Source of the DNA: a phage | Assembly: GCA_025043315.1 (NCBI GenBank) | Contig: GCA_025043315.1_4324.1 | Strand: one strand, 5' to 3' | DNA length: 46,202 nucleotides | In this document: positions 3,762 to 38,455 of the stretch, piece after piece | Numbering within the stretch: position 1 is the first letter of the stretch | Layout: each line of letters starts with the position of its first letter | Translations under genes and position numbers: made by a program | Notes under the pieces: generated by a model | Told to the model about the DNA's origin: nothing | Database searches by the model: none | Seen by the model: only the letters and a program-made list of their open reading frames with translations

Positions 3762-3804
3762 ATTATATGCCATCCGTGGCGACTGCGTTTAGCAATTCGT
3801 GCTA
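3762..3804 (-). promoter_or_regulatory. palindromic promoter module (TAGCAATTCGTGCTA 3790-3804; TATAAT at 3762-3767)
   Basis: 15-bp palindrome, 22-bp spacer, -10 hexamer, conserved leader CCACATCAACACAACGAGAG before ATG of 3543..3731. Confidence 0.6.
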
Positions 3805-4391
3805 TTTATAGAATGACTTAACAAAAGCCTCAGGTGTTACACCACGCTTGCAAGGCTTAATTAAATCCTTAATGATGAACCAGTGGAAAGTCTTCATATC
3901 AAAGACCAGTCGTTCACATGCGATCACATATTAAGTGAAGCTCATTCTTTCTTCTCCCGTTCCATCCACATTTTAGCCAGCTCGTAATAAGCTATCGCCT
4001 CCTCGACCTTTTCAGCTTCATCCTGCATTCTCTTACACCACTGGCTTGGTGATTCGTAGTTATCCATTAGTAAATTATAACCTCATCTTCTGAAAGGTAG
4101 ATATCCTCGCCATTCTTGTTCTTTACGATGTAGCAGCTACCATCATCACTCATCTCTGCGAAGAACACATCGCCACGCTGAATTAGCGCCACATAATCAC
4201 TCTCGCCAACATAAACAATCTTAATCATAGAATCACCTTACTTAAATTATCGTTCGTTAGAATGCGTTTTAGCGTCGTCTACGCCTGCCGAAATTATGTA
4301 GATAGTGGCGAAGCCTAGAGACCAAAGCAACCACGGTAGAGCCTCAACAAAAACATCGCCCATCATTAACTCCGTGTGCATATCGTTTACC

Positions 4392-4605: not shown

Positions 4606-4648
4606 ACTATAACAAATTACCCCGGTACCGTTTTATCAATTAGTGCTA
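4606..4648 (-). promoter_or_regulatory. palindromic promoter module, degenerate palindrome (TATCAATTAGTGCTA 4634-4648; TATAGT 4606-4611)
   Basis: same 22-bp spacing and leader as the other copies. Confidence 0.45.
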
Positions 4649-4798
4649 CTCGGCTACTCTATATGAATTAATATCACCACCAAGAACCAACCATTGAGCC
4701 TTTGCACCATCGTAGGTATCGTAGACTCGAACGTGCCTAACGCTGTTAAACTTGCCAGTGTAGTACGTGTGGATGTAAATCATTTCTTTGCCCCCCTA

Positions 4799-5359: not shown

Positions 5360-5402
5360 ACTATAACAAAACCCACCTGAGCGGGTTTAGCAATTTGTGC
5401 TA
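5360..5402 (-). promoter_or_regulatory. palindromic promoter module (TAGCAATTTGTGCTA 5388-5402; TATAGT 5360-5365)
   Basis: palindrome overlaps stop of the upstream gene; 22-bp spacer. Confidence 0.55.
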
Positions 5403-5660
5403 TTTACCAACCTTAATTGATTTAGACGATTCATGAATAATCTTCTGCCCGTAAAGCTCCTTAGCTTTCTGTAATGAATCAATCGAGTCATTGAGGTCTG
5501 TAAGGTAATCCTTGTGCCCACGTAAACCCATGCAAAGCATCTTCTTTATCGCGTGCTGAGTTGCTGGGTCAGATACGCGGAACGCATCAAGAACACGATA
5601 AACATCTACTGTTGTTACTGTGCCATCAATGCCAATAATTTCACGATCGTACTTACTCAT
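5400..5660 (-). CDS. hypothetical protein
   Basis: 86 aa ORF. Confidence 0.5.
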   Translation of the reverse strand: MSKYDREIIGIDGTVTTVDVYRVLDAFRVSDPATQHAIKKMLCMGLRGHKDYLTDLNDSIDSLQKAKELYGQKIIHESSKSIKVGK

Positions 5661-5851: not shown

Positions 5852-6099
5852 TGCTTCTCTGCCTCGTCCGCCGCCAGGATTAATGCCGAAGCCAGTTTTC
5901 GCGCTTGCTCAGGGGTGTATTGCATCAGCGTCTGGAAATCTTCGTATTCACCCGGATCGAAATTCAGAGATACAACGGCACCGCGATGGCTTTCTGTAAT
6001 GCTGACCTCGGCTTGGTTAAAGTAAACATCTTCAATACGAACACTTTCCATCTTCATTTCCTCTTCGTTGTTGATATGGTAATCATAGCTGACTACCAT
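5848..6099 (-). CDS. hypothetical acidic protein
   Basis: 83 aa ORF downstream of promoter module 6082-6124. Confidence 0.5.
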   Translation of the reverse strand: MVVSYDYHINNEEEMKMESVRIEDVYFNQAEVSITESHRGAVVSLNFDPGEYEDFQTLMQYTPEQARKLASALILAADEAEKQ

Positions 6100-6124
6100 A
6101 TTTATTGTTTAGCAATTCGTGCTA
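6082..6124 (-). promoter_or_regulatory. palindromic promoter module (TAGCAATTCGTGCTA 6110-6124; TATGAT 6082-6087)
   Basis: 22-bp spacer; leader CCATATCAACAACGAAGAGG. Confidence 0.6.
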
Positions 6125-6499
6125 TTCACCGCTCAGGAGTGATTTAGCTTTCCGGTAGAACTCAATCGCCGCCTCCACCTCTTCTTCACTGTACCGTAAG
6201 TGGTATGGTAGTCTACTAGGGTGCTCACCATCGTAAGTTTTGAAGTTAGGTTGCCAGCTTAAATCCGTCAAGGCAGGGTTGACGTAAACCTTATCCCCAA
6301 TTAGACAGGTAACATTCATCTTATCGAGCTCTGGAATTAGCTTATCCTTAATCAATAGCATCATTCCATCGCGCCCCGCAAATGGTTTCAGCTTGCGAGC
6401 ACCTTCATATAGAGACCTGATGCCGACAACTCCTTTGCCGTTAACTCCCATTTTCCTGATGATTCTAATCAGTACACCAAGCTCATCACCATTATACAC
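6122..6499 (-). CDS. stand-alone paralog of the C-terminal domain of the 9708..11291 replication protein (GTG start)
   Basis: GKGVVGIRSLYEGARKLKPF...NVTCLIGDKVYVNPAL aligns by eye with residues ~465-525 of the 527 aa protein. Confidence 0.5.
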   Translation of the reverse strand: MYNGDELGVLIRIIRKMGVNGKGVVGIRSLYEGARKLKPFAGRDGMMLLIKDKLIPELDKMNVTCLIGDKVYVNPALTDLSWQPNFKTYDGEHPSRLPYHLRYSEEEVEAAIEFYRKAKSLLSGE

Positions 6500-7184: not shown

Positions 7185-7204
7185 GTGTAATTTTTGGTAA
7201 CTTT

Positions 7205-7540
7205 TGGGGGCGTTACGCGAAATGGCACGCTAGCTAAGCTATAGCTCAATGTAGTTTCGTGTCGTGCGTGTAACGAGGTAAATTGGCTAGATGGCTCCAT
7301 AATGGCTAAATCTCACATAAAATAGCAACAATGTATTCTGATGGGAAAAAACATATAGATATCGCCGGGACCCCCGTTACACGACTTACATACAATAATA
7401 ATAATAATAATAATAATAATAGAAAGAAGATATATATATATATTAAGCACTTATAGCGTAAGTCAGGGCGTATCTGCGCGTAACTAGCGTAACGATAGGC
7501 GCTGGCTTACATCGCGCTACGTCGGTTACGCGTCAGCTCA
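7205..7540. promoter_or_regulatory. regulatory region A: GTTACG-type repeated boxes, (AAT)9 at 7394-7421, (AT)7 at 7430-7443; homologous to region 25515-25850
   Basis: shared blocks AAATGGCA, AGCTATAGCTCAATGTA, AGGGCGTAT, ACATCG-N-TCGGTTACG with region B. Confidence 0.55.
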
Positions 7541-7726
7541 AAATGGCTCAGCCAGAATAAAAATCAACTTGTATGGTAGTCAACCCAGCTTTCATTCACT
7601 AACTCCCCACTTCATTTCACTTTTCGCAACAATCAAAAACATCATTGCATCAGAAGCAATATTGCTGTATGCGCAATAATCATGTGAATCATTGCAATAT
7701 CTGCAACAATCCATAAATCTGACGAA

Positions 7727-7770
7727 TAGCACTTTTTGCTAAAGACATGTTAAGGTGGTGACGCTATAGT
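7727..7770 (+). promoter_or_regulatory. palindromic promoter module (TAGCACTTTTTGCTA 7727-7741; TATAGT 7765-7770)
   Basis: 23-bp spacer; leader TAGCTCATCAACAACGGGGAG before HNH gene. Confidence 0.55.
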
Positions 7771-7791: not shown

Positions 7792-8340
7792 ATGGATATG
7801 AAGATTGATAAAGATGAATTGCGTCACGAAAGCGCACTGATTGGTCGAGTTAGTGACCCTGAAATTTGGAATTCGATATTTGAATATGATGGGGAAAACC
7901 TAATAAGAAAAGCAACAACATCAAGTAGAGCGAGGGCTGGAGATGTTGTGGGGTGCCTTGATAGGGGTTACTTAACTGTCAGGTTCAATAAAAAGCTATA
8001 CTTTGTTCATAGGATCGTATGGGAAATGCATAATGGACCCATTCCTGATGGAATGTATATTGATCACATAAATCACAAGAGAGATGATAACGGATTGGTC
8101 AATTTAAGGCTTGTAACAAGAATTGAAAATCAAAGAAACATGTCAATTAGCAAAAGGAATAGTAGCGGCTTTGTTGGTGTCTCATGGAGTAAGGTGCACA
8201 ATAAGTGGGAGGTTAGAATAGGAGTGGGGAATGGCACGAAAGACATGTATTTAGGAAGATATGATGCCATTGATGAAGCAGTTGCAGTTAGAAAGAAAGC
8301 GGAGTTAGATATTGGGTATCACAAAAATCACGGAGAATAG
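7792..8340 (+). CDS. HNH homing endonuclease with AP2-like DNA-binding domain
   Basis: HNH-type motif IDHINHKRDDNGLVNLRLVTRIENQRN, then SSGFVGVSW...KWEVRI; paralog of 18683..19213. Confidence 0.75.
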   Translation: MDMKIDKDELRHESALIGRVSDPEIWNSIFEYDGENLIRKATTSSRARAGDVVGCLDRGYLTVRFNKKLYFVHRIVWEMHNGPIPDGMYIDHINHKRDDNGLVNLRLVTRIENQRNMSISKRNSSGFVGVSWSKVHNKWEVRIGVGNGTKDMYLGRYDAIDEAVAVRKKAELDIGYHKNHGE

Positions 8341-8942: not shown

Positions 8943-9104
8943 ATGCTACTACCATCTGAGATAAATTATTACGATCTTGACACCGTCGCAGCTTACAGCG
9001 GAAAGGTCTGGCCTTGCGGTGACTGGTTTCGCGAGGACTTGCTAGAAAGCCATGAAATTATGCTCAAGGCGATAGAGAAGGCAAGAAGTAGCACTAATTG
9101 CTAA
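8943..9104 (+). CDS. hypothetical small protein (53 aa)
   Basis: ORF whose TAA lies inside the palindrome at 9089-9103. Confidence 0.4.
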   Translation: MLLPSEINYYDLDTVAAYSGKVWPCGDWFREDLLESHEIMLKAIEKARSSTNC

Positions 9105-9131
9105 AGTCCTTCGGGGCTTTTCATGTATATT
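9089..9131 (+). promoter_or_regulatory. palindromic promoter module (TAGCACTAATTGCTA 9089-9103; TATATT 9126-9131)
   Basis: 22-bp spacer; leader CTCATCGAAACGAAACAACGAAGGG. Confidence 0.6.
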
Positions 9132-9521: not shown

Positions 9522-9634
9522 TTGATTTACTTGGTGGTGGGTACTTTATTATCTTGATCGTAGTTGAGATTCTTAAGATTGCATTATATGGAGCTGGATT
9601 GTGGATGTGTCTAAAGTGGATTAAGAACAACTAA
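9518..9634 (+). CDS. small hydrophobic protein (38 aa, MIDLLGGGYFIILIVVEILKIALYGAGLWMCLKWIKNN), one predicted TM helix
   Basis: ATG overlaps upstream stop (ATGA); below track cut-off. Confidence 0.35.
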   Translation: MIDLLGGGYFIILIVVEILKIALYGAGLWMCLKWIKNN

Positions 9635-9677
9635 TAGCACAAATTGATAATGAATTATAAGCGGTCGTTGATATAAT
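9635..9677 (+). promoter_or_regulatory. palindromic promoter module (TAGCACAAATTGATA 9635-9649; TATAAT 9672-9677)
   Basis: 22-bp spacer; leader GACCGCTCAGAAACAACACGGAGAG. Confidence 0.6.
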
Positions 9678-13058: not shown

Positions 13059-13102
13059 GATTATGCCGCATTTCTACGGCATGGGTTAGGCAAAGAGTGC
13101 TA
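13059..13102 (-). promoter_or_regulatory. palindromic promoter module, degenerate (TAGGCAAAGAGTGCTA 13087-13102; ATAATC 13059-13064)
   Basis: 22-bp spacer; leader CACCACATCGAAACGAGATG. Confidence 0.45.
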
Positions 13103-14233
13103 TTAACTAAACATTTCGGGACGGCAAGTGAATCGGCCAATCTCACCAAACTTAGGGCTATAGATTATCACTGAAGCCTGTCGGTATGATCGATACCCTC
13201 CATTGGCGCTGTACGCATCCTTACAACCAAGTTGTCCATGAGACTCATCAATGCCTAAGTTACCCTCTGTAATCGTTTGATGGTGGTAATGGCCCGAGTG
13301 AGTGTAAACATACTCAGATTCACCAAAGGCCTTGCGATGATCGCGAGCCAGGGTGGACAGTCGAGTGTCAGGTTTTTTGAGTTCATGTCCATGACAGTAA
13401 CCAAGCAGGGTCTTTCCAAACTGTGTTACGTGAAGCGCCGCAGGAGATGCATCAACATTAACTCGAGGCTCATCCATATAGAACGCCGCCATTGCAGCGC
13501 GAAGCCAAATCATACCTGAGAGGTCGTGGTTGCCAGGGATAATCTGCACCTCAACCTCGGCGTGCTTATCAAGCATCCGACTAATTGCTCGGCGGGTAGC
13601 TCGCACCGCTACGTAAACAAGCTTGTGATAACGGCTATCTTGATCAAGAATATGACGACTCGTTGGAGTTACCGCTTCCATTCCGTCAGAGTGAAGGAAG
13701 TCTCCACCAATCAGCAATACAGCTTTCTTTGAGTTAGGGGCTTTTGCTACCGCGTAATCAAAGTAATCATTAAGGATTCTCTCAGCAATTTCAGTACTGT
13801 AGTTCTCACCACATTCAGCGTGGTGAGCCATGGCGCCAATGTGAAGGTCGAACACTGGGTAAAGGCTCAATGTGTCCTCAAATAATGATACTCTGAGCGC
13901 CTTAGGTTTCTCACGTGGCAACTCATCAGTTAGGGCTTGAATTACCTGAAGCATCATTTCTTCTTGCTTCTCTTTGTCAATGTCAGACTTAACCCACTGT
14001 TGCTTAATCTCACCATCCGCACCAATAAGGCTAGAAACACCCTTAACAGCGTAACCCTGCGGAATCAGATTGCTAACATCACGACCGTGACCTTCACCCA
14101 TCTTAGCCAATTTACTGCGACGCAATTCAACGTTGCGAATGTTCATTCCGTACTTCTCTGCGATTGCTTTGTTAGTCATGCCGTTAGCGAGCTCTTCGCG
14201 CAATTGTTCGTTGGTAATTTTTGCAGTTGCCAT
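13103..14233 (-). CDS. metallophosphoesterase (calcineurin-like) with N-terminal HTH-like segment
   Basis: motifs DLHIG, GGDFLHSD, GNHD, GHELKK; N-terminal GMTNKAIAEKYGMNIRNVELRRSKL. Confidence 0.65.
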   Translation of the reverse strand: MATAKITNEQLREELANGMTNKAIAEKYGMNIRNVELRRSKLAKMGEGHGRDVSNLIPQGYAVKGVSSLIGADGEIKQQWVKSDIDKEKQEEMMLQVIQALTDELPREKPKALRVSLFEDTLSLYPVFDLHIGAMAHHAECGENYSTEIAERILNDYFDYAVAKAPNSKKAVLLIGGDFLHSDGMEAVTPTSRHILDQDSRYHKLVYVAVRATRRAISRMLDKHAEVEVQIIPGNHDLSGMIWLRAAMAAFYMDEPRVNVDASPAALHVTQFGKTLLGYCHGHELKKPDTRLSTLARDHRKAFGESEYVYTHSGHYHHQTITEGNLGIDESHGQLGCKDAYSANGGYRSYRQASVIIYSPKFGEIGRFTCRPEMFS

Positions 14234-15355: not shown

Positions 15356-15606
15356 TATTCTAATACCTCGTCAAATTTTTCGCCAAATTCGTTTTTAACA
15401 GTTTCTAAGTCATCTTTGTATGTCGGGCTAACTTCAAATGCGTAAGACTTATCATCAACATCAATCAGTATATATCCAACGCTTGTTGTTATTGCCAGTT
15501 CATACATATAACCAGTCTTGCGTGATTCGTAGAATTTTCCAGTGTAGATAGTAGCCATTTTGTTTCTCTCTCTGTGTTTCGTTTCGATGGAGTAACTATA
15601 CCCCAC
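15355..15606 (-). CDS. hypothetical acidic protein
   Basis: 83 aa ORF downstream of promoter module. Confidence 0.5.
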   Translation of the reverse strand: MGYSYSIETKHRERNKMATIYTGKFYESRKTGYMYELAITTSVGYILIDVDDKSYAFEVSPTYKDDLETVKNEFGEKFDEVLE

Positions 15607-15637
15607 CTTTTAAAATCGTCTTTAGCAATTAGTGCTA
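15595..15637 (-). promoter_or_regulatory. palindromic promoter module (TAGCAATTAGTGCTA 15623-15637; TATAGT 15595-15600)
   Basis: 22-bp spacer; leader TACTCCATCGAAACGAAACACAGAGAG. Confidence 0.6.
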
Positions 15638-16054
15638 TTTTGAAATCATTTCTTTGAATGCTGCAATAAAACCCTCGCGACCATAGGCCACAGCCGCGAA
15701 ACCTCCTGATTCTCTCACGCTTTTAAGGAAAGACTTCTGTTCGTTACTGACTGGACTAGCTTGTGTTTTTCCAGCTCTCTTTAGCTCTATGGCTCCAAAA
15801 GGGTACTTACCACGCAGAGATTCAGGTATCAGAAACAAGCAATCTGATACGCCCTTAAGCAATCCTTTAGCCTGGTCCTTTCTTGCCTGACCGATGCTCT
15901 TCATCGATTCATTAACCGTGTGCCAATAAACAATCTGCGGGTAGTTATACTTAACCCAATCAGAGCAAAAGATTTGTTCGTCATCCTCCTTTGGGCATGA
16001 TTTAACGGGGCCAGGGTAAAACTCAATGTAATCTTCTTTATCTGTTATGTTCAT
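15635..16054 (-). CDS. VRR-NUC domain nuclease
   Basis: PD-(D/E)XK-like GVSDCLFLIP...GAIELKRAGKTQASPVSNEQKSFL; adjacent to SF2 helicase. Confidence 0.65.
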   Translation of the reverse strand: MNITDKEDYIEFYPGPVKSCPKEDDEQIFCSDWVKYNYPQIVYWHTVNESMKSIGQARKDQAKGLLKGVSDCLFLIPESLRGKYPFGAIELKRAGKTQASPVSNEQKSFLKSVRESGGFAAVAYGREGFIAAFKEMISK

Positions 16055-18045
16055 AACAATTCTCCAAAATTCTTAAAAGCTATTATATCCTTTCCTTTGC
16101 CATTCTTGCGGTGTGTCACCTGGACTGGCGCGCGAAACTTATCTGCGTTAGTCATAATCATTCTGGCATTCTTCAGCCTGCCAATTCGTGCTGCTTCAGC
16201 GCGATTTTCAATGTGAGCAAGGCAAAAGTTTTTCCAAAGCACACTACAAACCCTATGGTCAGATTCTGGATTGAAGAACTCCCAAGCGTTAAATCTTTCT
16301 CCGTTGTGGGCCATGATATTGTACTTAACAACAATGCCCGTTTGATTCTTGCTTAAACCAACTTGAAAATCATAAACCCGCAAATAGTCTCCGCGACGAT
16401 ACATCTTTCCAGTCAGGTTAGCGTTTGGGTCCTTAAGCGTTTCTCCGCATTCACGACAAACTTTTGCTGCTATGTCATTTTTAGTTCCACAACCTTTCTT
16501 GATTACCGCCTTTGTTTGTTGGTCGGTAATATCATCACATGTCGTGAACTGGAAAAAGTGATCGCATCTAACACCATCAATCTTATTGCTACAGCGTCTA
16601 GCAAATGGCGAGTTCTCATATCCACATTGCGGACACTGGCGAACCTTATCACCACCTTTTCTTGAGGATTTAAACTTCTCAGCCTGAATCTCCTCAATTA
16701 TTGGGTCAAAGTAAAGCTCTGCCATGTCATCAAGCGCTCCGGCAAAGTCTAATACCAAGTGGTCCTCCTTCTTGAACCCAGCATCTATGTGCGCCTTTTT
16801 TAGTTTTCGCATGCCACGACCAAGAAGCTGAATCATTAAGGTTAGACTGCCAATCTTGCGTAGTATGACGCTAGTATCCCACAGCGGTTGGTTTACGCCC
16901 GTAGTTAGACAACCAATCTGGAATATTATTTTGTACTTCCCTGTCTGGCAATCTGCAAGAATCTCTCTGCGCTTCCTCTCTCCGGTAGAATCGGTGATAA
17001 TGGCGTAAGGGTATCCATCCGGCAATGCCGCAGCAGCCTCATCACAATGAAGTTTTCCAGCGCAGGTGACCAATGCGGCGTTGCGAGTCTCCAGTATTTT
17101 GACGACAAACTGCATTATCTTTTGTGTCATGGTTTGGTTGTCGTGAATCTTTGCGGCCATTGCATCCATTTCTTTTCTGCTAAAGTCTTTCACGCCATCA
17201 CTACCGTCTGGAACAAACTCGCTAAGGTCATAACCCAAATCGCCAACCTCGCCATAAACAGTGGGAACCACGAATCCCAAATCAACAAGGTAATTTGTTG
17301 GAACCTGAATCACAGTTTTTCGCCAGAACCCACGGATATTTGGATTGCTAACGACGATATGATCATTGTTTCGATAAGGGCTACCAGTAAGGCCGAATAT
17401 ACGAAGCTCCCGCCCGTATTTTTCACGGCAGCGACGCTTCATCTCAGTGATTATTAGCGTGTACTGCGCGCGACCAGTGCCAAACAACCCTGTGTTTACG
17501 CCATCCTTAAAAACCATCTCGCCTTTCTTTGTGCTCATTTGTTCAAATGTTTCTTCGTTCTCTTCAGCCTCAACGATATCCATGTGATCAACCATATGAC
17601 ACTCATCGATTGCAATAACTGCCGGAACATAGTCACCAAGCCCCTTAAATAGGCCGTTGGCTGCCGTGCCCTCACTAGCAACTATGGTTGGGTAGTAAAC
17701 TGATTTAACGTTAAGTCCGGCGCAATAGACGCTGTTGCGGATGCCGAAATTACGAAGTTCTTCTGAGTTCTGGCTTACTATCTCTGACTGGCGAGAAAGA
17801 ACCATGTAAGGCAACCCCAATTGCTCCATGCGCTTTCCAATCATGGCGAGAATGATTGTCTTACCAGCAGATACTGAAAGGTCTGCGATAAATGGGGCCT
17901 CGTACTTCCCAATAGCCTTTCCGATAGCATCAAATGTAACGCACTGGAACTCGTAAGGAGTTATCTCTCCAAACTGATAGTCTTTCTGAATCTGTTTGAT
18001 TCTTTCTTTATCGAAGTTTGCAACCTGCTTCTCGATAGGCAACAT
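16051..18045 (-). CDS. SF2 DNA helicase with C-terminal zinc-ribbon region
   Basis: Walker A SVSAGKT, DExH-like IDECHMV, motif VI LGRGMRK; Cys clusters CPQCG...CRECG. Confidence 0.8.
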   Translation of the reverse strand: MLPIEKQVANFDKERIKQIQKDYQFGEITPYEFQCVTFDAIGKAIGKYEAPFIADLSVSAGKTIILAMIGKRMEQLGLPYMVLSRQSEIVSQNSEELRNFGIRNSVYCAGLNVKSVYYPTIVASEGTAANGLFKGLGDYVPAVIAIDECHMVDHMDIVEAEENEETFEQMSTKKGEMVFKDGVNTGLFGTGRAQYTLIITEMKRRCREKYGRELRIFGLTGSPYRNNDHIVVSNPNIRGFWRKTVIQVPTNYLVDLGFVVPTVYGEVGDLGYDLSEFVPDGSDGVKDFSRKEMDAMAAKIHDNQTMTQKIMQFVVKILETRNAALVTCAGKLHCDEAAAALPDGYPYAIITDSTGERKRREILADCQTGKYKIIFQIGCLTTGVNQPLWDTSVILRKIGSLTLMIQLLGRGMRKLKKAHIDAGFKKEDHLVLDFAGALDDMAELYFDPIIEEIQAEKFKSSRKGGDKVRQCPQCGYENSPFARRCSNKIDGVRCDHFFQFTTCDDITDQQTKAVIKKGCGTKNDIAAKVCRECGETLKDPNANLTGKMYRRGDYLRVYDFQVGLSKNQTGIVVKYNIMAHNGERFNAWEFFNPESDHRVCSVLWKNFCLAHIENRAEAARIGRLKNARMIMTNADKFRAPVQVTHRKNGKGKDIIAFKNFGELL

Positions 18046-18146
18046 ATCTGAATTCCTATAAAAATTGTCTTGTAGCGTTTAATTGAGTACAATATTACCA
18101 TCAAATCATGATGACTTTTAACAAAAAATGCTATTGAGGTAATAAG

Positions 18147-18632
18147 ATGAATGCAGTCGACAAGCGAACCATTAACGGTAATAACGGAACCATCCGCACT
18201 GAAGACAAAAAACAACGGAAACGACCTTCAGGTTACTACGTTTTGAAAGATGAGGTAAGGGCGGGTTTACGTGCGCGGCTGGAAATTGTTCTTGATTTCT
18301 TCGGCACAAAGGCAAATATGGCAAAGCAATTAAAGGTAACACCACAGGCTGTAGAGGAATGGTTTAAGCGCGGTATGATTTCTGCGCGCGGGGCTCAACT
18401 CTCACACAACTACTACAAGCGAACAGGGGAAGGCTTTCGCGCCACATTCTGCCGACCAGATCTGCAATTCGACGGAAACGGCAAGCCTCTTACTCTACGT
18501 TGCAAAAAGCGTCACATGCTGCGTGTTGTTACTGAGGCTGAATTAGCCACCAAGCCAGAGTGTCGATCATGGCGCAAGATTAAGGAAGAGAATCGCAAAA
18601 AGCGAGAAGCAGAGACAAATAGCACGAATTGA
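18147..18632 (+). CDS. HTH DNA-binding protein (Cro/YdaS-like), candidate regulator
   Basis: HTH-like TKANMAKQLKVTPQAVEEWFKRGMIS; basic N-terminus. Confidence 0.5.
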   Translation: MNAVDKRTINGNNGTIRTEDKKQRKRPSGYYVLKDEVRAGLRARLEIVLDFFGTKANMAKQLKVTPQAVEEWFKRGMISARGAQLSHNYYKRTGEGFRATFCRPDLQFDGNGKPLTLRCKKRHMLRVVTEAELATKPECRSWRKIKEENRKKREAETNSTN

Positions 18633-18662
18633 TAAACAATGGCGCTATGCATTGTGTATAGT
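18620..18662 (+). promoter_or_regulatory. palindromic promoter module (TAGCACGAATTGATA 18620-18634; TATAGT 18657-18662)
   Basis: 22-bp spacer; palindrome overlaps stop of upstream gene. Confidence 0.55.
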
Positions 18663-18682
18663 GCCTTTATTGTTTATGGAGG

Positions 18683-19213
18683 GTGTATATGAAAGTTAAT
18701 GATTTTGTTTATGTTGACGATGAATTTAAATTAAGATGGAAGAGTAGAGGTGTTGAATTCTTCAAAACAGAGAGGTCATCAAAGATCTGGAATAGTAGGT
18801 TTGCAAACAAGGAATGTGGATACATTAGGGATGACGGCTATCTTTCTTTTGAGTTCAATGGTCGAGCATACAGAAATCACAGGGTGATATGGGAAATTGT
18901 AACTGGTAATGAAATAGATGATAACATGGAGATTGACCATATAGATCATAATACAACAAACAACAATATTGAAAACCTTAGACTTGTTGACAGGAAAGAG
19001 AATTGCAAAAACCAATCCATGATGCCCCATAACTCGAGTGGCTTCACAGGTGTTCACTGGTGGTCAGCAAGAAACAAATGGAGAGCCCGCATCGAATGTG
19101 ATGGCAGAGTGAAAACAAAAACATTTGAAGACTTTAATGACGCTGTCGAGTGGAGAAAAGAAATGAACATAAATCTTGGCTTTCACAAGAATCATGGAGA
19201 TAAGAAAAAATGA
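18683..19213 (+). CDS. HNH homing endonuclease with AP2-like domain (second copy)
   Basis: IDHIDHNTTNNNIENLRLVDRKENCKN, SSGFTGVHW...KWRARI. Confidence 0.75.
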   Translation: MYMKVNDFVYVDDEFKLRWKSRGVEFFKTERSSKIWNSRFANKECGYIRDDGYLSFEFNGRAYRNHRVIWEIVTGNEIDDNMEIDHIDHNTTNNNIENLRLVDRKENCKNQSMMPHNSSGFTGVHWWSARNKWRARIECDGRVKTKTFEDFNDAVEWRKEMNINLGFHKNHGDKKK

Positions 19214-20133
19214 AATTTTATGATAAGAAAGAGGTATTGCCAAGAATGATGGGGATGTGGAAGGATGCCCTCATAAACATTTGTGATGCGCCTGAGAGCT
19301 TCTTTAATGGCAAGCACCAGCCATGCCTATATTGTGGAGGTCGGGATCGGGCTAGATGGACTGATAACCTATCTATAAAAGGTGACGGCGGAAATATATG
19401 CAATCAGTGCGGAAACGACACTGGAATAGGGTTGATGATGAGGCTTACTGGAATGAACTACAGTGAGGCCATAAATGTATTAGGTGACTGGCTCAACCTT
19501 ATACCTGCAGAGGTTATATCAAAAGCAAACAAAAGAGCATCTCGTACATCACCATACAAAATGGGCGCCCAGATTGATCACGAAAGATGCTTAGAGATAA
19601 TGGAAAGGACGGAAAGAGTAGAATCAACTCCGCTCAGTACATATGAGGGTATCTATAGCGAGTTTGGTTTTGATGTTGGCAGGACGAAATCAGGCGAATT
19701 AATACACGCAGTACCGTGCTTTATGGCTTATAATGATGGCATATCAGATGATATGTGCAATGTGATGTTTATCAATGAAGAGGGAGATGTTAGTTATGCT
19801 GCAAAAGATTATACTCGCCAGTCTGTGGCTGTTATTGGTTCCTTTAAGGATGATGAGTACGCTTACCTGGTCGATAATTGGGTTGATGGTGTTCGCGTTC
19901 ATCTTGCTACTGGCAACCGCAGCGTGCTTGTTTGCCACTCCAGCTACAACATGGAAATGGTTGCTTATGCGCTTAAAAAATACAAGTTACGCGTCGCTTG
20001 TACTATCCACGATTTTGATTTACTTGCCGTTGCTGACGATCGCAATCTTGATGTTGTAATGCCAAATGATGATAATTTTTTCAAGTCAGGAATAAGAAAG
20101 AGAATATACAAGGCAAGCGAATTACTAAACTAA
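19210..20133 (+). CDS. putative DNA primase with N-terminal zinc ribbon
   Basis: C-x2-C...C-x2-C (CLYCGG...CNQCGN); replication-module position. Confidence 0.5.
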   Translation: MKFYDKKEVLPRMMGMWKDALINICDAPESFFNGKHQPCLYCGGRDRARWTDNLSIKGDGGNICNQCGNDTGIGLMMRLTGMNYSEAINVLGDWLNLIPAEVISKANKRASRTSPYKMGAQIDHERCLEIMERTERVESTPLSTYEGIYSEFGFDVGRTKSGELIHAVPCFMAYNDGISDDMCNVMFINEEGDVSYAAKDYTRQSVAVIGSFKDDEYAYLVDNWVDGVRVHLATGNRSVLVCHSSYNMEMVAYALKKYKLRVACTIHDFDLLAVADDRNLDVVMPNDDNFFKSGIRKRIYKASELLN

Positions 20134-20156
20134 CCTCCTTCGGGAGGTTTTTTTAT
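20133..20156 (+). terminator. rho-independent terminator (CCTCC-TTCG-GGAGG plus T7)
   Basis: hairpin 20135-20148 then T-tract. Confidence 0.7.
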
Positions 20157-20181
20157 GCATTAAAGATGATACAATCCACTT

Positions 20182-20196
20182 TAGCAATTCGTGCTA
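20182..20196. promoter_or_regulatory. palindrome TAGCAATTCGTGCTA without the usual -10/leader, upstream of tail fibre gene
   Basis: exact palindrome core; no TATAAT-like hexamer at the 22-bp position on either strand. Confidence 0.4.
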
Positions 20197-20221
20197 AACA
20201 ACAATATAGGAATTGATTATT

Positions 20222-22579
20222 ATGGCAATTTATGACTTAGGAACCGCATCGCTAGCCGCGAATGGCGAAGTGACTGGCGTAGGAACAACATGGAAGGCAC
20301 CACTTACACTGATCAGAGTTGGTGCAACCATCGTATTTAAAACTGAACCAGTACAGATTTACACCATCTCAGAAATCATCAGCGATACGCGGATTAATGT
20401 TTACAACCCTAATTCTGAAACTGTTCCTGCTGGCACTGGTTACGCGATTCTTGCGCACGACGGGATTACCGTCCAGGGTTTAGCTCAGGATGTTGCCGAA
20501 ACTTTGCGCTACTATCAGTCAAAAGAGACCTCAATTGAGTCATTAATTGAAATAATTGAAAACTCAGATATTGATGTTATTGATGGCAAAATTCAGGAAA
20601 TGCAGCAAATTCTAAGTAGCACAATGGCAGCCGAAGGATCAGCAAAATCCAGTAGTGATAGCGCTCTTGAATACAGTAATAAATCAATAAGCAGCGCTAA
20701 TGAGTCAAAGTCTGCAAGGGATGAGGCTGTAGCCGCTAAGAATTCGACAATTGAAGCGATTAATAACGCAGGAGATGCAGGTACACTAGTGACATTATCT
20801 GGTTCTAATGGGGCATCACTTATTGGAACCACTGATGGTTCAACCATTCAGGACGAGATTTCGAGTCTTAAAGCCAATGGGGCTTCAATTATTCGAACCA
20901 CTGATGGTTCAACCATTCAGGACGAGATTTCGAGTCTTAAAGCCAATGGGGCTTCAATTATTCGAACCACTGATGGTTCAACCATTCAGGACGAGATTTC
21001 GAGTCTTAAAGCCAATGCTGGAAATCTTAGGGCAGAACTAGCTTCTGATAATGGATTTAATATCGTCAATTACAAGAGGCCTGGTGTTAATGGTTCTGTA
21101 ATTAATTCGCTATCTACCAGGTACGCTTACACTTTAGACGCCGTGGCTGATTTCGGAGCTGACCCAACAGGTTCAACAGATAGTTACGAAGCATTGCAGG
21201 CGTGGGCGAACGCATGTGTTGCTGGGCCATGGGCTACAGGAACTATTAACGGAATATTCAGGATCAGTAAAACACTTGAGTTCGCCAATATCGCTGGATT
21301 GACCATTATTGCTAACTGTTACATATACCCAACTTTCGAATCTGGCGATGCTGTGATTCGCTATCGCAATGGCCAGGGTCTTCGTGTTTACGGTCGCTTT
21401 GAAGCGTCAGGTCAGAATAAGATAGGTATCCGTGCGGCTCATAAGATTTACACCGATAATGATAATGGTTTTAGCTTTTCCTACCTATATGGTGCTTGCG
21501 CTAGTGATGCTCTTACTGGTTTCGAGTTTGGTGACGCGGCTTATCCTAGCGGTCTAGTTTCCGAAATGTCACTGATTGGTGGTTACTCAGTGGGGTGCCC
21601 ATGCGCGGTTCGAGCTATAGGTTCCCAGTGCTATATTAACTTGGATGGATTCGATGCTGTGTCTGGAGGGGTGGGTGATCTTAGTTCCGTTACACAATAC
21701 ACCATTCATGTAAAGGGGGCTAATGTTAAAGTTCGTGGCGGTGAGATTCAGCACAATAATAATATCTACGGAGCTAGCATTCTCGTAGAGCCTCAAACTG
21801 ATCCTCTTTTCAATAATCAGTTCGGAAGCATTGAGGTTAATGCTTGCCATGTTGAGACAGCAGCGCAGCTGTGTTTTATTGCGAATCTTGATGGTGTGGA
21901 ATCACCTAAGAGTGATTTTACTAATATTTCATTTAAAGGACTGCGTGGTTATCACTCCCAGGATAACGGACCATTTATTAGCACGCACTCAACTGCCATT
22001 GAAAGTAACTATTCTGGAACCATTAGTTGGGCTAATATGTCTGGAATGCACTGCGGAGTCACCAGAACACAGCCTAACATACAGGCTGGGAGTCTATCTA
22101 GAGTGTACTACGACGAGACATATGGTGCTGGGTTCCGTAAAGGATTACAGTCTGTATCTGGCGGTATATTGCACTTTAGTCGTAGGCCTGTATGTATAGC
22201 TCAGAACACAGGTGGACAGACTCTTACTGCAGCCACTGACAAAATAATTTGGGGGGGGCTGGTTTCAACTGACGACTCTTACCGCTGGAACGCACAGTAC
22301 AGCGGGGGTACATTTACAGTGCCAGCGGGTGGTTTAAAGGATGTTCACGTTCATGCTGTAGCAAGGATTGACACAAATGTTCAGCTTAGTATGACTGTTT
22401 TCGTAGACGGCGGCGCACAAAGTTTGGCTATACCCAGCGCGGGAGCGGCTGAGCTTAATGCATTCCTTGGTGATTTAGATGCGGGTAGAGAAATTGAGAT
22501 CAGAGCTAGTGTAAGTCCAGGTTCGGCTATTTTGAATGGAGGTTATTTTGAGAGGATGACTATTACTGCATCAAGGTAG
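20222..22579 (+). CDS. tail fibre / tailspike protein with three tandem 23-aa repeats
   Basis: 785 aa from ATG at 20222 (track 788 aa from TTG 20213); repeats GASxIxTTDGSTIQDEISSLKAN x3; C-terminal Gly/Asn-rich region suggestive of a beta-helix. Confidence 0.7.
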   Translation: MAIYDLGTASLAANGEVTGVGTTWKAPLTLIRVGATIVFKTEPVQIYTISEIISDTRINVYNPNSETVPAGTGYAILAHDGITVQGLAQDVAETLRYYQSKETSIESLIEIIENSDIDVIDGKIQEMQQILSSTMAAEGSAKSSSDSALEYSNKSISSANESKSARDEAVAAKNSTIEAINNAGDAGTLVTLSGSNGASLIGTTDGSTIQDEISSLKANGASIIRTTDGSTIQDEISSLKANGASIIRTTDGSTIQDEISSLKANAGNLRAELASDNGFNIVNYKRPGVNGSVINSLSTRYAYTLDAVADFGADPTGSTDSYEALQAWANACVAGPWATGTINGIFRISKTLEFANIAGLTIIANCYIYPTFESGDAVIRYRNGQGLRVYGRFEASGQNKIGIRAAHKIYTDNDNGFSFSYLYGACASDALTGFEFGDAAYPSGLVSEMSLIGGYSVGCPCAVRAIGSQCYINLDGFDAVSGGVGDLSSVTQYTIHVKGANVKVRGGEIQHNNNIYGASILVEPQTDPLFNNQFGSIEVNACHVETAAQLCFIANLDGVESPKSDFTNISFKGLRGYHSQDNGPFISTHSTAIESNYSGTISWANMSGMHCGVTRTQPNIQAGSLSRVYYDETYGAGFRKGLQSVSGGILHFSRRPVCIAQNTGGQTLTAATDKIIWGGLVSTDDSYRWNAQYSGGTFTVPAGGLKDVHVHAVARIDTNVQLSMTVFVDGGAQSLAIPSAGAAELNAFLGDLDAGREIEIRASVSPGSAILNGGYFERMTITASR
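20811..21017 (+). repeat. 3 x 69-bp in-frame tandem repeat inside tail fibre gene
   Basis: units 2 and 3 identical, unit 1 differs at a few positions. Confidence 0.9.
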
Positions 22580-23746: not shown

Positions 23747-23775
23747 CTTTAACCTCGTTCGTTGTTGATGGGGTA

Positions 23776-23818
23776 ATCATACCCCACCTTTTAATTTTGT
23801 ATTTAGCAATTCGTGCTA
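23776..23818 (-). promoter_or_regulatory. palindromic promoter module (TAGCAATTCGTGCTA 23804-23818; TATGAT 23776-23781)
   Basis: 22-bp spacer; leader TACCCCATCAACAACGAACGAGG. Confidence 0.6.
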
Positions 23819-23819
23819 T

Positions 23820-25177: not shown

Positions 25178-25524
25178 TTTTGTAACCCCACGATGATTTC
25201 GATATGCTCTTTAGTTGTCTTTTCTATTCTAATTGATTTATTTTTCCAGTCTTCACCATATGATGACTCGCATAATTTAAGAGCTATTTCGTAAGTTAAC
25301 CCAATAAAAACCGGAGCATAGCTAGGTAGTATTACGGTGTGAGCTGAGTATCTATCTATTTTCTTTCCCATTTTCGTATCTCTTTGGTTGTTTGCTTTCG
25401 ATGAGGTAACTATATATTCGCAAGTGCAGCCAGTCCAATTGGTTTCGCCAATCGTTGATTCAAACTTACGCGTGAATATTTGTAATTCCGTGTAGGCATT
25501 GCCACTTGTTACGTAAAATGGCAT
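25174..25524 (-). CDS. hypothetical protein (start uncertain)
   Basis: 116 aa ORF whose ATG lies inside conserved regulatory region B. Confidence 0.4.
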   Translation of the reverse strand: MPFYVTSGNAYTELQIFTRKFESTIGETNWTGCTCEYIVTSSKANNQRDTKMGKKIDRYSAHTVILPSYAPVFIGLTYEIALKLCESSYGEDWKNKSIRIEKTTKEHIEIIVGLQK

Positions 25525-25850
25525 CTAAGCCCAGCTATAGCTCAATGTAACCGGCGTGTATATCGTGTATATCATTTATTGCTGATGGTGTATTGGTATA
25601 GCTGCCGCACAATACTGTATAAATCCACATGATATTAAAATTATAACCGGAACACTCTATAGAAGTAGTTACATGATATACACAGTAATATATATAATAA
25701 TAATAATAAGAGTAAAATGTTGATATATATAGATATTTTAATGTAACTAATGCGTAAATTGGCGTAACAGGGCGTATATCATTTTCCGCGGATGAGATTG
25801 TATACATCGAGTTACATCGGTTACGTGTAACTGTGATTTGTGGTGAATTT
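25515..25850. promoter_or_regulatory. regulatory region B, diverged homolog of region A, with short (TA)n/(AAT)n tracts
   Basis: shared blocks with 7205-7540; GTTACG boxes; AT-rich simple repeats at 25680-25730. Confidence 0.5.
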
Positions 25851-25859
25851 GGCGATAAA

Positions 25860-25902
25860 TAGCACTAATTGCTAAAGGAATCTGACTGTCTTTAGGTATA
25901 TT
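25860..25902 (+). promoter_or_regulatory. palindromic promoter module (TAGCACTAATTGCTA 25860-25874; TATATT 25897-25902)
   Basis: 22-bp spacer. Confidence 0.55.
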
Positions 25903-26247: not shown

Positions 26248-26673
26248 ATGCTTCTTGTTGGAATGCGTGAGTCAAAGGCAGTTCGCCTAGCGGTTCTTGA
26301 TAAGCTTAAGCAGATGCAGGCCACCATTAAAAAACAAGCAGAAGTAATCAGCCAGATGGTAAGTATTGATGAACTAAAAGAGGCGAGAATGATGCTTGGT
26401 GTAGCTAATGCGCAGAATGCACATCTTAGCCAGCGCATTGTTGCAGAGCAAAGAATAAATGAGATCTTACTCATGGATAAGAATACCGATGAAAAGCTCG
26501 ACATGCTGGCTTGTGAGGCTCGCCAGTGCTGGGTTAGCCGCTCTGATGAGATGGAGGAAAGATTTAAGTATGAAGTGCAATGCTTCGCTCTTAAAGAAAA
26601 GACGGACGCACTGACCGGATTAATTGAGAATGAGCTAGGTATTGATATTAAGCTGTTGCTCGAAAAGAAATAG
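26248..26673 (+). CDS. C-terminal part of the same Rha-like reading frame (141 aa), in frame with 26005..26244 across TAG-CAA
   Basis: same frame as upstream ORF, separated only by TAG at 26242-26244 plus CAA. Confidence 0.45.
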
Positions 26674-26713
26674 CACTAATTGCTAAACACTGGTCGCAAG
26701 GATGCGATACTAT
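26671..26713 (+). promoter_or_regulatory. palindromic promoter module (TAGCACTAATTGCTA 26671-26685; TACTAT 26708-26713)
   Basis: 22-bp spacer; leader TACTCCATCGAAACGAAACGAAC. Confidence 0.6.
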
Positions 26714-26753
26714 TACTCCATCGAAACGAAACGAACTTACTAAGGAACATAAA

Positions 26754-27992: not shown

Positions 27993-30900
27993 TTACCACA
28001 CTCCAACTACCACTCTTCCTCCGTTCGGTAAGTTTACAGTGATTCCGTTATTGTTAATCTGGACCGTGTTATTAATTCCGTTAAATGCGAAGTTACCATT
28101 ATTGGCATACAGGTTACCCCTTACAGTGGCGTTATTAAATTCCGCACTTCCTGACTTGTCAATCGCCCATCCTTGAGAGCCAGCAACGTAGTTGTTAGAT
28201 TGAATCCTGTTACCAATCTTCGCGTTAGTAATTGAGCCATCGCCAATTACCGCGCTTTGGATGATTACGTTTCCGTTCTCTACAACGAAGGGGAGTTGCC
28301 ACTGACCGGAACCAGAACCAATGCCGTTACTGATTGCGAATCTGTTTGCGTCAAAAATGAACTGACTGCGAACGTTTCCACCAGTGCCAACTAGCTCCAT
28401 GCTCATGCCGGATGAATAAGTCTGACCATTGTATTTCAGGCCAAGGCTAATTCCGTACTGCACGCCAGTTGATGTGGCATTAGAGAATGCGTCTAACTTC
28501 TGGTTTAGAGCCGCCTCGTTTTCGCCAAGTCTTGCTGATAGAGCCGTGTCTGCAGTAGTTCTTGCTTCTGTCTCTGTGGCTAATGCAGTCTGAACTTCTG
28601 TAATCGACGATACAACTTCATCATCTATCTGTGCTTTAAGGGCTGTTAGAGCCTCTACGCGCGCCTGAGTTTCATCTGCTATGAGATTAACTGCCTGAAC
28701 ATATTCAGCCTTACGTTTGCCATTCTCCTTTGTCATTCTGCGAACATCGCCATCATTAGCCAATGCGTTCTCGATAATTGCCTCGGCTTGATTCTGAATG
28801 TCCTGGTTTTTCTCAATTGCATTCTGCTCGAGATATTTGAATCCTTCAGAACCCTCGATATCAACCTTGATGTAATCATTGATGATGTTGGCGTCGTCAG
28901 TACTCATGCCCCTAGCGAAATAAGACCAATCAGAGGTATTGCCAATTCTGTCAATCAATCTTGCACGATACCAAATGACCTTGCCTGGTTGAATCGGCGC
29001 GTGCCAGTATTCATAGGCTGGATAAGGCAGTAACGTCAGCAAACTTGCGTTATCAGGATTATAAGTACCGTCACCATTATCAGGAACCTGCTGAAGTTCA
29101 GTGTAAGCAGTATCACCAGATCCTTCAGGAAATCCCCATTTAACACGGATGCCAAATACTTCATCAGTTGATGCAGTGATAACTGTAGGCGCAGATGGGC
29201 GGCCAATCTTACCAGTTAGCGATACAGTTACAATGTCAGACCAGGCAGACACGTTTTCAGTATCTGATACGCTGCGAACCCTAACGTCATAGATTCCTGC
29301 GTAAATACCTTCGATATCAACCTCTGTGCTAGCTGTTCTGGGTACGTTAATCCAGTTGCCATTCTCTTTTCTCCACTGAACATTGTAGGTTTTTGCGTAT
29401 GGAGCTTTATCCCATCCGATAACCATCGTCTCAACTGATAAGCCTTGAACAACCTTACTGTAGCTTGACACTGTTAAATTCTCAGGCGGCGACAATCTGT
29501 CAGGCTCTACGATTGAAGTCGGACGATCAACAATGTTAACGCCGTAGTCAATCTCGTCATACTTGTTAGGGTCATACTCTACTGCGGTAATTGTATACTG
29601 GAATGAGTCCGAGCCGTCGGAATCCGCTTTTTGAATCCCGGTCACAACATACTGCTGAAGCGCCAGATTATCCTTATCGATTGCGAATACAGTATCAGGC
29701 TGAGCTACAAAGCTGAAAGCTGTGTTCAGGTTAATCGTCCTACCATCATCAGATACGCTTGCAATGGTTCTTGCCTCCGGACTTCCGTCAGGCTTGTTCA
29801 GAAGAATTCTGTCACCAGGCTCTGCGTCAACTTTAAACGGGGTAAAAACCTGCAATCCCTGAACTGATTCAATACGACCGGAAAGGTTTAACTGATAGTT
29901 GCTGGACCATGCCGCGTCATTGACCGCAATAACCTCACCAATCATCGGAATCATACCTTCCAACCCGGTAGTGAAGCTGATAGTTTCGCTTCTTAGGTTG
30001 GTTTTCAGGAGCCATCTTCCGCGTCTGTTTGCTTCACTTCTGCGAGTACATCCAATCGCAGTTAAATCTACAGGGTTAAATCCAAAACGACGAGTTGCCT
30101 CCAGCTCGAATACTGTCTCAACATCCTGCTGATAGTTGTTCTCCACATCATCAAACTGAACGTTTGCGGTAGTGTAAAGACTTTTATCACTGGCAAATGT
30201 GCGGCTGAATAATCCATTAACGACGTTATCATTCGTGAAGATGTAAGATGGATTACGAGGTTTGTCGACAACAATACCAATCTTTTCGCCATCGTAGAAA
30301 GTTAAGCCACGGAAGATTGAGCAGATATCACGAATTAGTGTGTAGGCCTCAACTTTATTCTGGACAACCATGTCGCATAGATATCGCGGCTCCATACCAC
30401 CCTTACCATCTGGAACCATCTGGTCACAGAATTGCGCGGCTTCATACAGGCCCCACTTATCAATCTCTACACCCAACTCTCGCTGATCAAGACCGTAGCG
30501 GCGGTTTGTCACTAAGTCATAAAGAACCCACGCAGGGTTATTTGACCATGCCATTTTAAATAGACCATTCCATGTGCCACTATAAGTTCTGCTTTCAGGG
30601 TCATAGTTTGTAGGAACCTGAATCAACTTCCATCGCTTCTTGATAGAGATTGTCGGGATACCGTTAGGAAAAAGGTCAGAGCCAAACTCAACGTAAACAA
30701 GAGCCGTAAGCGGATAGCGGAATTTAGCGTCGATTACTTCCTGATAGGTTGTAATCTGCATCCCGTTTACCAGCGTGCTACTTGTCGAATCTGGCGTAAT
30801 CTTACGGATACGAACCAGGGCGCTATCAAATTCAGCCGGAAGGTTTACACGAATGCTGCGGTCGTAACCTGTAGTTGTCTTCCCGTTAGCAACTCCTCGA

Positions 30901-33223: not shown

Positions 33224-33266
33224 ATCATACTCCATCCGTGGCGACTTCGTTTAGCAATTCGTGCTA
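33224..33266 (-). promoter_or_regulatory. palindromic promoter module (TAGCAATTCGTGCTA 33252-33266; TATGAT 33224-33229)
   Basis: about 55 bp near-identical to the copy at 3762-3804. Confidence 0.6.
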
Positions 33267-33267
33267 T

Positions 33268-38409: not shown

Positions 38410-38452
38410 ACTATACAGGAAGATTGGATTAACGCTTTAGCAAAAAGTGCTA
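38410..38452 (-). promoter_or_regulatory. palindromic promoter module (TAGCAAAAAGTGCTA 38438-38452; TATAGT 38410-38415)
   Basis: 22-bp spacer; leader TAACTCATCGAAACGAAATGAGAGA. Confidence 0.55.
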
Positions 38453-38455
38453 TGC

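Follow-up and report, generated by a model that had tools for sequence, protein, structure and literature searches.

The 46,202-nucleotide stretch of phage DNA analysed here (contig GCA_025043315.1_4324.1 of NCBI GenBank assembly GCA_025043315.1; referred to, at its full length, as the window) represents an almost complete T1-like phage genome (Drexlerviridae, Braunvirinae). It carries a helix-turn-helix (HTH) protein gene at 18147-18632, orthologous to pir of phage T1, and a directional box, repeated on both strands, which matches the marbox bound by the host activators MarA, SoxS and Rob and holds the position that these activators occupy at class II promoters. Based on sequence comparison, the reading that we favour, with a probability of roughly 0.55, is that of a Pir ortholog acting alongside marbox-type class II promoters that would be read by a host activator. 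The initial annotation of the gene had proposed that its product is the reader of the repeated element. The evidence assembled below suggests instead that Pir is probably not the protein that recognises the box.

The box and its promoters

The box is a directional 20-mer, ATAGCAC-nnn-TTGCTAAAc. The motif family has 29 matches in the window against 5.9 expected, a number reached by none of 100 shuffles. The repeated element of the initial annotation is thus real, but it is not the two-fold palindrome that was described there, being an asymmetric 20-mer. About 16 box-promoter copies are distributed over both strands and are not confined to the plus-strand block that follows pir. Each gene of this block had been said to carry the module; the HNH endonuclease and primase genes do share one copy (18619-18638), but the copy next to the tail-fibre gene faces the opposite way and lacks a usable -10.

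Aligned copies display a fixed order of elements, i.e., aaATAGCACnnnTTGCTAAAc, 18 bp, a -10 hexamer (TATAGT, TATAAT or TATGAT), the leader TTACcCCATCgAAACGAaac, GAGAG and the ATG. The distance from box to -10 is exactly 18 bp in 14 of the 16 window promoters and in 66 of 96 sites from five phages. All 16 window copies face the downstream gene, as do those of T1, TLS, Motto and Vc1. When promoters are located through the -10 and the leader only, a box is found at 18-19 bp in eight of nine intergenic cases. None of the box promoters of the window has a proper -35 at 17 bp from the -10. A generic sigma70 -35/-10 scan of the window returned 36 pairs against 33.4 in shuffles, i.e., no excess, and was used merely to locate the promoter of pir (P_pir) and a second box-less promoter (P_25437).

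Most box promoters have the 18-bp spacer and/or the -10 inside a hairpin (e.g., at 9108-9131, 5360-5383, 23769-23786, 6079-6104 and 18634-18675). In one form, the spacer is filled by a terminator hairpin whose U-tract contains the -10; in the other, two arms flank the -10 (GGGGTA-tgat-TACCCC). The arms vary between promoters while their complementarity is kept. Since spacer and -10 are embedded in hairpins, each unit can be described as a fused terminator-promoter. The transcribed leader, TTAC(C)CCATC(G/A)A(A/C)ACGA(A)AC, is found ahead of the GAGAG ribosome-binding site of at least 10 units, with examples just past the -10 at 15575-15594 (-), 23755-23775 (-), 26714-26735 (+) and 18094-18110 (+), and it is also present after both box-less promoters. 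This conserved leader is a candidate translation or stability signal, or protein-binding site.

The re-annotation of phage TLS in 2024 reported 21-nt intergenic direct repeats, aaATAGCACnnnTTGnTAAAA, in 18 intergenic copies that are directed with transcription and lie about 76 nt before start codons; the repeat was also noted in T1, Rtp and Rogue1. Its authors treated the function of the repeat as an open question and suggested a stoperator, an enhancer site or an UP element (PMC11447400).

Marbox match and class II geometry

The marbox can be compared with the phage box through two consensus sequences. The classical degenerate form, said to go back to Martin et al. 1999, reportedly reads AYnGCACnnWnnRYYAAAYn. 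The degenerate 20-mer used as the query, AYNGCACNNWNNRYYAAAYN, is a consensus of this kind. Allowing at most one mismatch, it is found 15 times in the window, 21 times in T1, 21 in TLS, 16 in Motto and 9 in Vc1, against 0.5-1.2 times in shuffles (0.8 for the window) and not at all in lambda. The other consensus, gcactaattgctaaa, derives from chromatin immunoprecipitation sequencing (ChIP-seq) of MarA in E. coli (PMC5684230); it is matched at 15 of 15 positions at window coordinates 9088, 15619, 25859 and 26670, and at 14 of 15 in most other copies.

Class II promoters are those in which a forward marbox overlaps the -35 and is centred between -36 and -55 (PMC6900184; PMC12052159). MarA possesses two HTH motifs and binds the non-palindromic marbox as a monomer, its micF site being centred near -41 (PMC8811837; PMC9638938). 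Measured directly in MG1655, the micF 20-mer acaGCACTGAATGTCAAAac ends 18 bp ahead of the -10 TAGAAT. The structure of Rob with RNA polymerase on micF places the G and the A of GCAC at -47 and -45 (PMC9178005), and the phage boxes place them at -47 and -45 as well, provided that the -10 spans -12 to -7. The marbox reading of the T1-like repeat appears new: a literature search, limited in extent, retrieved no paper that ties the marbox or MarA/SoxS/Rob to T1-like phages.

A reader of this type is not found among the phage's own genes. No MarA/SoxS-like protein (AraC/XylS type, with two HTH motifs) is encoded in the window according to a comparison with MarA and SoxS queries, and ten other candidate ORFs (open reading frames) of the window have no transcription-factor domain. 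A phage-encoded MarA/SoxS-like reader was rejected for want of such an ORF in that comparison, and Orf65, a second regulator of T1, was rejected as the general reader of the box, having no homolog in the window or in Escherichia phage BEK1-1. A scan of viral contigs for ATAGCACNNNTTGCTAAA, seeking unrelated users of the box, was dominated by single chance matches, and nearly all contigs with several matches were T1-like genomes of 46-53 kb.

The pir gene and its product

The 161-residue ORF, its HTH and the overlap of the repeat with its stop codon, all described in the initial annotation, are real, as judged from the ORF, the AlphaFold model and the coordinates. PHROG 2856 (phrog_2856), labelled 'transcriptional regulator', matches the product end to end (residues 1-156, E-value 1.2e-83), and the product is 52% identical to T1 gp23 (Pir) over 133 residues. 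The order helicase-pir-primase, with the helicase divergent, is kept in the window, TR2, T1, Vc1, Motto and TLS. The ORF is a real gene for the T1 Pir ortholog, core to T1-like phages, and its product, orthologous to an already studied regulator, adds a member to a family that is known and in part characterised.

Two Pfam families of this fold class score below their gathering thresholds at residues 48-80: P22_Cro (PF14549) with 26.2 bits against 30.2, and YdaS (PF15943) with 19.9 bits against 30; several homologs do carry precomputed PF14549/PF15943 matches. The AlphaFold model, built with 37 homologs, is confident (pLDDT 88) and displays a single HTH formed by helices 55-62 and 66-75, preceded by an N-terminal arm that is disordered and extended by a small C-terminal part; as modelled, the protein has an all-helical Cro fold with an HTH. 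A profile search of solved structures gave weak Cro-type matches and nothing else.

The family is restricted to T1-like phages, with 825 matching phage records, nearly all on Enterobacterales. It was compared through 72 distinct combinations of protein and upstream region, drawn from 87 sequences. The segment from helix 2 through the turn to helix 3 occurs in 22-24 different versions among these combinations (e.g., PQAVEEWFKRG, IQVVQQWRKRG, NSLLTIWIKNG, LKTVWGWKERG and VRLTNAYRLRG). In the protein alignment, the interval from G53 to G76 holds no invariant residue, while near-invariance is seen in the N-terminal arm, in helix 1 and in the C-terminal part. In most members, the recognition helix opens with a Gln. 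The Pir homolog of Motto and Vc1 has a very different recognition helix (VRLTNAYRLRG).

The function of T1 Pir, a name given to gp23 by Laganenka et al. 2019, was studied with promoter-gfp fusions in phage-free E. coli: Pir represses its own promoter and P_recE and activates P_hol and P_dam, P_orf65 is independent of Pir, and Orf65, the second regulator, represses P_pir and activates itself (PMC6737242). The lysogeny framing of that study has been disputed (PMC8262962); the reporter data do not hinge on the contested claim. Through this ortholog, by identity, synteny and published reporters, the regulatory and autoregulatory role that the initial annotation assigned to the protein is borne out, and the product is very probably an autoregulating transcription regulator.

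Mapping of these promoters onto the T1 genome shows that P_dam has a box and no visible iteron and that P_recE is canonical and box-free (TTGACT-16-TATAAT). The hol region has a box about 370 bp upstream. P_pir of T1 has a canonical -35/-10 and is not a box promoter, and P_orf65 is a near-perfect box promoter (ATAGCACGAATTGCTAAAAC + 18 + TATGAT).

The pir control region and the box at its stop codon

P_pir of the window is a canonical, box-free promoter, with canonical counterparts in T1, TLS, Vc1, Motto, TR2 and most of the 22 helix-3 classes. The annotators of TLS, working independently, found no more than three sigma70 promoters in that genome, and its TLS equivalent (P57) is among them. 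The pir 5' untranslated region (5'-UTR) holds the box of the divergent helicase promoter, ATAGCATTTTTTGTTAAAAG, and in most helix-3 classes examined the pir start is preceded, at 10-13 nt, by a helicase-promoter box. The -10 of the helicase promoter has base pairs in common with that of P_pir on the opposite strand; the same overlap is seen in T1 (TATAAT/TATTAT) and, in Klebsiella phages, takes the form of the palindrome TGTATAATACA. As the -10 base pairs are shared, this layout implies that P_pir and the helicase promoter cannot both be occupied.

At the other end of the gene, TAGCACGAATTGATA (18620-18634) overlaps the TGA stop codon at 18630-18632 and belongs to the box ATAGCACGAATTGATAAACA, which is followed by a -10 within the 3' arm of the pir terminator hairpin. 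A box near the pir stop is kept across the family, between -24 and +5 relative to the end of the stop codon. By its position and neighbouring elements, the stop-codon copy is best described as the promoter of the downstream HNH/primase unit, nested in the pir terminator, and the overlap would reflect compaction and not autoregulation. The autoregulatory use that had been proposed for this copy is not upheld: besides its family-wide promoter context, the published autoregulation of Pir was measured on a fusion of the promoter region (PMC6737242).

The second box-less promoter, at 25409-25437, precedes the exonuclease/recombination operon and is likely, by its sequence and location, to be the counterpart of the Pir-repressed P_recE of T1.

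Symmetry of the box and constancy of its sequence

The sole symmetric part of the box is TAGCA/TGCTA, i.e., 5+5 bp, reduced to 4/5 in the stop-codon copy, which has TGATA. In the 96 sites, A1, C7, T11, A17 and A18, which carry 1.4-2.0 bits, break the dyad. G4 is invariant, while at its dyad partner 57 sites have C and 36 have T; this C/T variation appears to track the degeneracy of the marbox (RYY) and not symmetry. Every copy is strictly oriented and therefore fits a directional site.

The box consensus is identical in every class of the helix 2-turn-helix 3 segment. As one would expect the reader of an invariant 20-bp site to retain its recognition helix, a constant box next to a variable recognition segment makes Pir an unlikely reader. 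Likewise, P_orf65 is a near-perfect box promoter, yet it is independent of Pir, and the box alone is therefore not sufficient for a response to Pir. The claim that the protein reads the repeat is thus not supported, in view of the marbox match, the asymmetry of the site, the constancy of the box next to a variable HTH, and the behaviour of P_orf65.

Other targets for Pir were sought at its own promoter. Across 51 distinct P_pir regions, perfect inverted repeats reach a mean best arm of 4.78, the same as in shuffles, which lends a dyad operator no support; the sole recurrent 'dyad' consists of two overlapping -10 hexamers. The word GTAAACG occurs near both Pir-repressed T1 promoters and is missing from P_pir of the window; with 10 genome copies against 6 expected, it is not significant and was rejected.

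Proposed mechanism and alternative readings

In the favoured reading, a host activator of the MarA/SoxS/Rob type would sit on the box and recruit sigma70 RNA polymerase to promoters that have no proper -35, and about 16 such promoters would drive most transcription units of the phage. The pir gene, with its canonical -35/-10 promoter, would be expressed immediate-early. At P_pir/P_helicase, polymerase would fire in one direction at a time, a layout that could constitute a switch from early expression to replication. Pir would lower canonical promoters (its own and recE) and raise some box promoters (dam and hol), though not orf65, and would thereby modulate the regulon without being the box reader. 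The wider proposal, that Drexlerviridae hand the recognition of nearly all their promoters, by way of consensus-grade class II marboxes, to host activators of stress and antibiotic responses (MarA/SoxS/Rob) and that Pir is the switch from a few early promoters to the host-activator set, is in our judgement evenly balanced. The published fusions were assayed in phage-free E. coli, and the T1 box promoters were therefore tested with host proteins only; their activity is compatible with activation by host MarA/SoxS/Rob and is not proof of it.

Several points weigh against a host activator, and some of them favour the proposal of the initial annotation, developed here into a model in which an HTH dimer on TAGCA-N5-TGCTA would activate all box promoters, like T4 MotA or a late activator. 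This model would explain autorepression by the reversed helicase box of the P_pir region, in the pir 5'-UTR, and marbox likeness by convergence or mimicry. Pir stimulates two box-containing T1 promoter regions (P_dam and P_hol), for which direct binding is the simplest account, and represses P_pir. The centres of the half-sites are separated by about 10 bp, which an HTH dimer could use. The pir gene, whose own canonical promoter is one of about three in TLS, is among the few genes expressible without an activator, a classic sign of a phage-encoded activator of later promoters. Boxes are also kept in Motto (16 sites), reported on Pseudomonas aeruginosa, and in Vc1 (9), reported on Vibrio cholerae; if these non-enterobacterial host assignments are correct, the hosts must supply, or the phages encode, a marbox reader. 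In addition, MarA and SoxS are inducible. Rob is described as largely sequestered without inducers (PMC9178005). The supply of activator for some 16 promoters per genome copy is hard to account for, and one common box leaves temporal order unexplained. A dimer of Pir on the box is nevertheless unlikely in our view. The box matches the marbox at every informative position, and this match together with a micF-like 18-bp spacing is very unlikely to arise by chance; five high-information positions violate the dyad; and the box stays constant next to a highly variable recognition helix. Besides the Pir-independence of P_orf65, P_recE is repressed by Pir though box-free, and the T1 fusions were assayed with no other phage protein present.

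Pir could also work through protein contacts, acting on sigma70 region 4, on polymerase or on a box-bound host activator, as T4 AsiA or a co-activator would, such that -35-dependent promoters (its own and recE) are penalised and -35-independent box promoters favoured. The published pattern fits, both canonical promoters being repressed and box promoters stimulated or neutral, and P_pir has no detectable dyad operator; moreover, conserved surface is found on the disordered N-terminal arm (DKRTxNGNNGTxRGxDKKxRKRP), on helix 1 and on the C-terminal part, and not on the HTH helices. The fold is, however, a standard DNA-binding Cro-type HTH, the Gln that opens the recognition helix in most members is consistent with DNA contact, and the idea is wholly inferential; we consider it less probable still than the dimer. 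Slightly lower again stands the view that Pir belongs to the replication module and binds an origin or iterons made of GTTAC(G/A) repeats, its promoter effects being by-products. The gene lies between helicase and primase in all relatives, and two paralogous regions with iterons and AT-rich tracts exist in both the window and T1. One TGTAACA region of T1 is located directly upstream of the Pir-repressed P_recE, the spacer of T1 P_pir has TGTAACG, and the iteron word varies between subfamilies, as the recognition helix does. This association is positional only and confounded by phylogeny, P_pir of many relatives has no such word, and the stimulation of P_dam, where no iteron is seen, is left unexplained.

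Other features of the window

Within 17000-21000, the window shares 94% identity with BEK1-1 and about 85% with TR2 and Sd1, and the gene order agrees with that of annotated relatives and of T1 itself. The coordinates of the features are collected in Table 1.

Table 1. Genes and predicted control elements of the window.
Feature	Position	Strand	Remark
pir-like gene	18147..18632	+	161-residue single-HTH protein, Cro-type fold, ortholog of T1 gp23 (Pir)
DNA helicase gene	16051..18045	-	divergent from pir
HNH homing endonuclease gene	18689..19213	+	inserted between pir and primase; missing in many relatives
DNA primase gene	19210..20133	+	
P_pir, canonical sigma70-type promoter	18065..18093	+	TTGTCT-17-TACAAT, box-free; -10 at 18088-18093
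-10 of helicase promoter	18091..18097	-	TAATAT/AATATT; base pairs common with P_pir -10 on opposite strand
Box of divergent helicase promoter	18115..18134	-	pir 5'-UTR, 12 nt before ATG
HNH/primase promoter box	18619..18638	+	overlaps pir stop codon; includes 18620-18634
-10 hexamer TATAGT	18657..18662	+	18 bp past the HNH/primase box
pir terminator hairpin and U-rich tail	18634..18675	+	free energy (dG) -19.4 kcal/mol, z -4.4; 3' arm holds next promoter's -10
Second box-less promoter (P_25437)	25409..25437	-	TGGACT-17-TATAGT and usual leader; ahead of exonuclease/recombination operon
Box promoter	3762..3805	-	box + 18 bp + TATAAT
Box promoter	4606..4649	-	3 mismatches to 20-mer, 18 bp, TATAGT
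Box promoter	5360..5403	-	
Box promoter	6082..6125	-	
Box promoter	7726..7770	+	19-bp spacer
Box promoter	9088..9131	+	
Box promoter	9634..9677	+	
Box promoter	13060..13103	-	
Box promoter	15595..15638	-	
Box promoter	23776..23819	-	recombinase unit
Box promoter	25859..25902	+	
Box promoter	26670..26713	+	
Box promoter	33224..33267	-	tail genes
Box promoter	38410..38453	-	
Inverted 'orphan' box	20180..20200	-	no usable -10; between primase terminator (20132-20149) and tail-fibre start

The orphan box faces back into the primase gene and has a T1 counterpart at 34902; it may act as an antisense element or a roadblock, or be the scar of recombination at a module boundary. The paralogous non-coding regions at 7200-7560 and 25500-25850 are about 60-70% identical over some 350 nt and lie at two switch points of divergent transcription. 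Each contains 6-7 GTTAC(G/A)/(C/T)GTAAC repeats with an (AAT)n and a (TA)n tract, and they have in common a 42-nt block with the palindrome AGCTATAGCT. All six TGTAACA copies of the T1 genome are found at 469-494 and 29932-30093, in the same layout as in the window, and the repeated word of the iteron regions differs in TLS and Motto. These regions look like origins or regulator-binding arrays, and their clustered GTTAC(G/A) repeats provide a lead to a candidate target of Pir. A second HNH homing endonuclease gene, with an AP2-like DNA-binding domain, is located at 7792-8340, and the lateral tail-fibre gene contains three tandem 69-nt repeats (96% identical, 20807-21017) that code for a repeated 23-residue segment.

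Significance

T1 is one of the original T phages, and its transcription control was never worked out. A consensus marbox in class II position turns the question raised by the TLS repeat into a directly testable one. If the favoured reading is true, a virulent phage family would depend on the mar/sox/rob regulators, a case new to us; on the wider proposal, the development of these phages would be coupled to signals of the salicylate, oxidative and bile type, as well as to the state of mar/sox/rob in clinical strains. Such dependence would have consequences for phage-antibiotic interactions, for host range (largely Enterobacterales) and for the contamination of cultures by T1-type phages, and the boxes would be compact promoter-terminator parts dependent on a host activator. 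The gain for the protein itself is smaller, given that it is the ortholog of an already studied Pir.

Comparison with known systems

The protein resembles the all-alpha Cro proteins, such as Xfaso1 Cro (3bd1), P22 Cro (1rzs) and N15 Cro (2hin), but is about 100 residues longer, the additional parts being an N-terminal arm that is conserved, disordered and basic, and a C-terminal part in which two Cys residues are near-invariant. It also differs from them in scoring under the Pfam gathering thresholds, in the lack of a detected dyad operator at its own promoter, and in belonging to a virulent phage without a repressor partner. T1 Pir and the window protein are alike in their location between helicase and primase, in their canonical type of promoter and in the reversed box of the 5'-UTR; they differ in the recognition helix (PQAVEEWFKR against NQTVQGWKER) and in the basic C-terminal tail, which is longer in the window.

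The middle promoters of T4, which rely on a MotA box plus AsiA, provide a functional analogy: the sigma70 -10 is kept and the -35 is replaced by an activator box, and an early phage protein moves polymerase from -35-dependent to box-dependent promoters, as Pir might do here. The phage box differs from that of T4 in matching the site of a host activator and in being centred near -40 and not -30, and the window proteins that were scanned included no recognisable homolog of AsiA or MotA.

The 21-nt repeat of TLS is the same element as the box of the window; its marbox match and class II geometry go unmentioned in the re-annotation (PMC11447400). A further likeness is to the class II promoters of MarA/SoxS/Rob (micF and others), with which the phage boxes have in common the sequence GCAC ... 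TTGCTAAA, at 15/15 to the ChIP-seq consensus in the best copies, as well as the forward orientation, the -35 overlap, the 18-bp gap and the poor -35. Unlike their host counterparts, however, the phage copies sit in a virulent phage, at 15-21 near-consensus sites per 45-50 kb genome, whereas host marboxes are degenerate, and the phage boxes are fused to terminator hairpins and a common leader.

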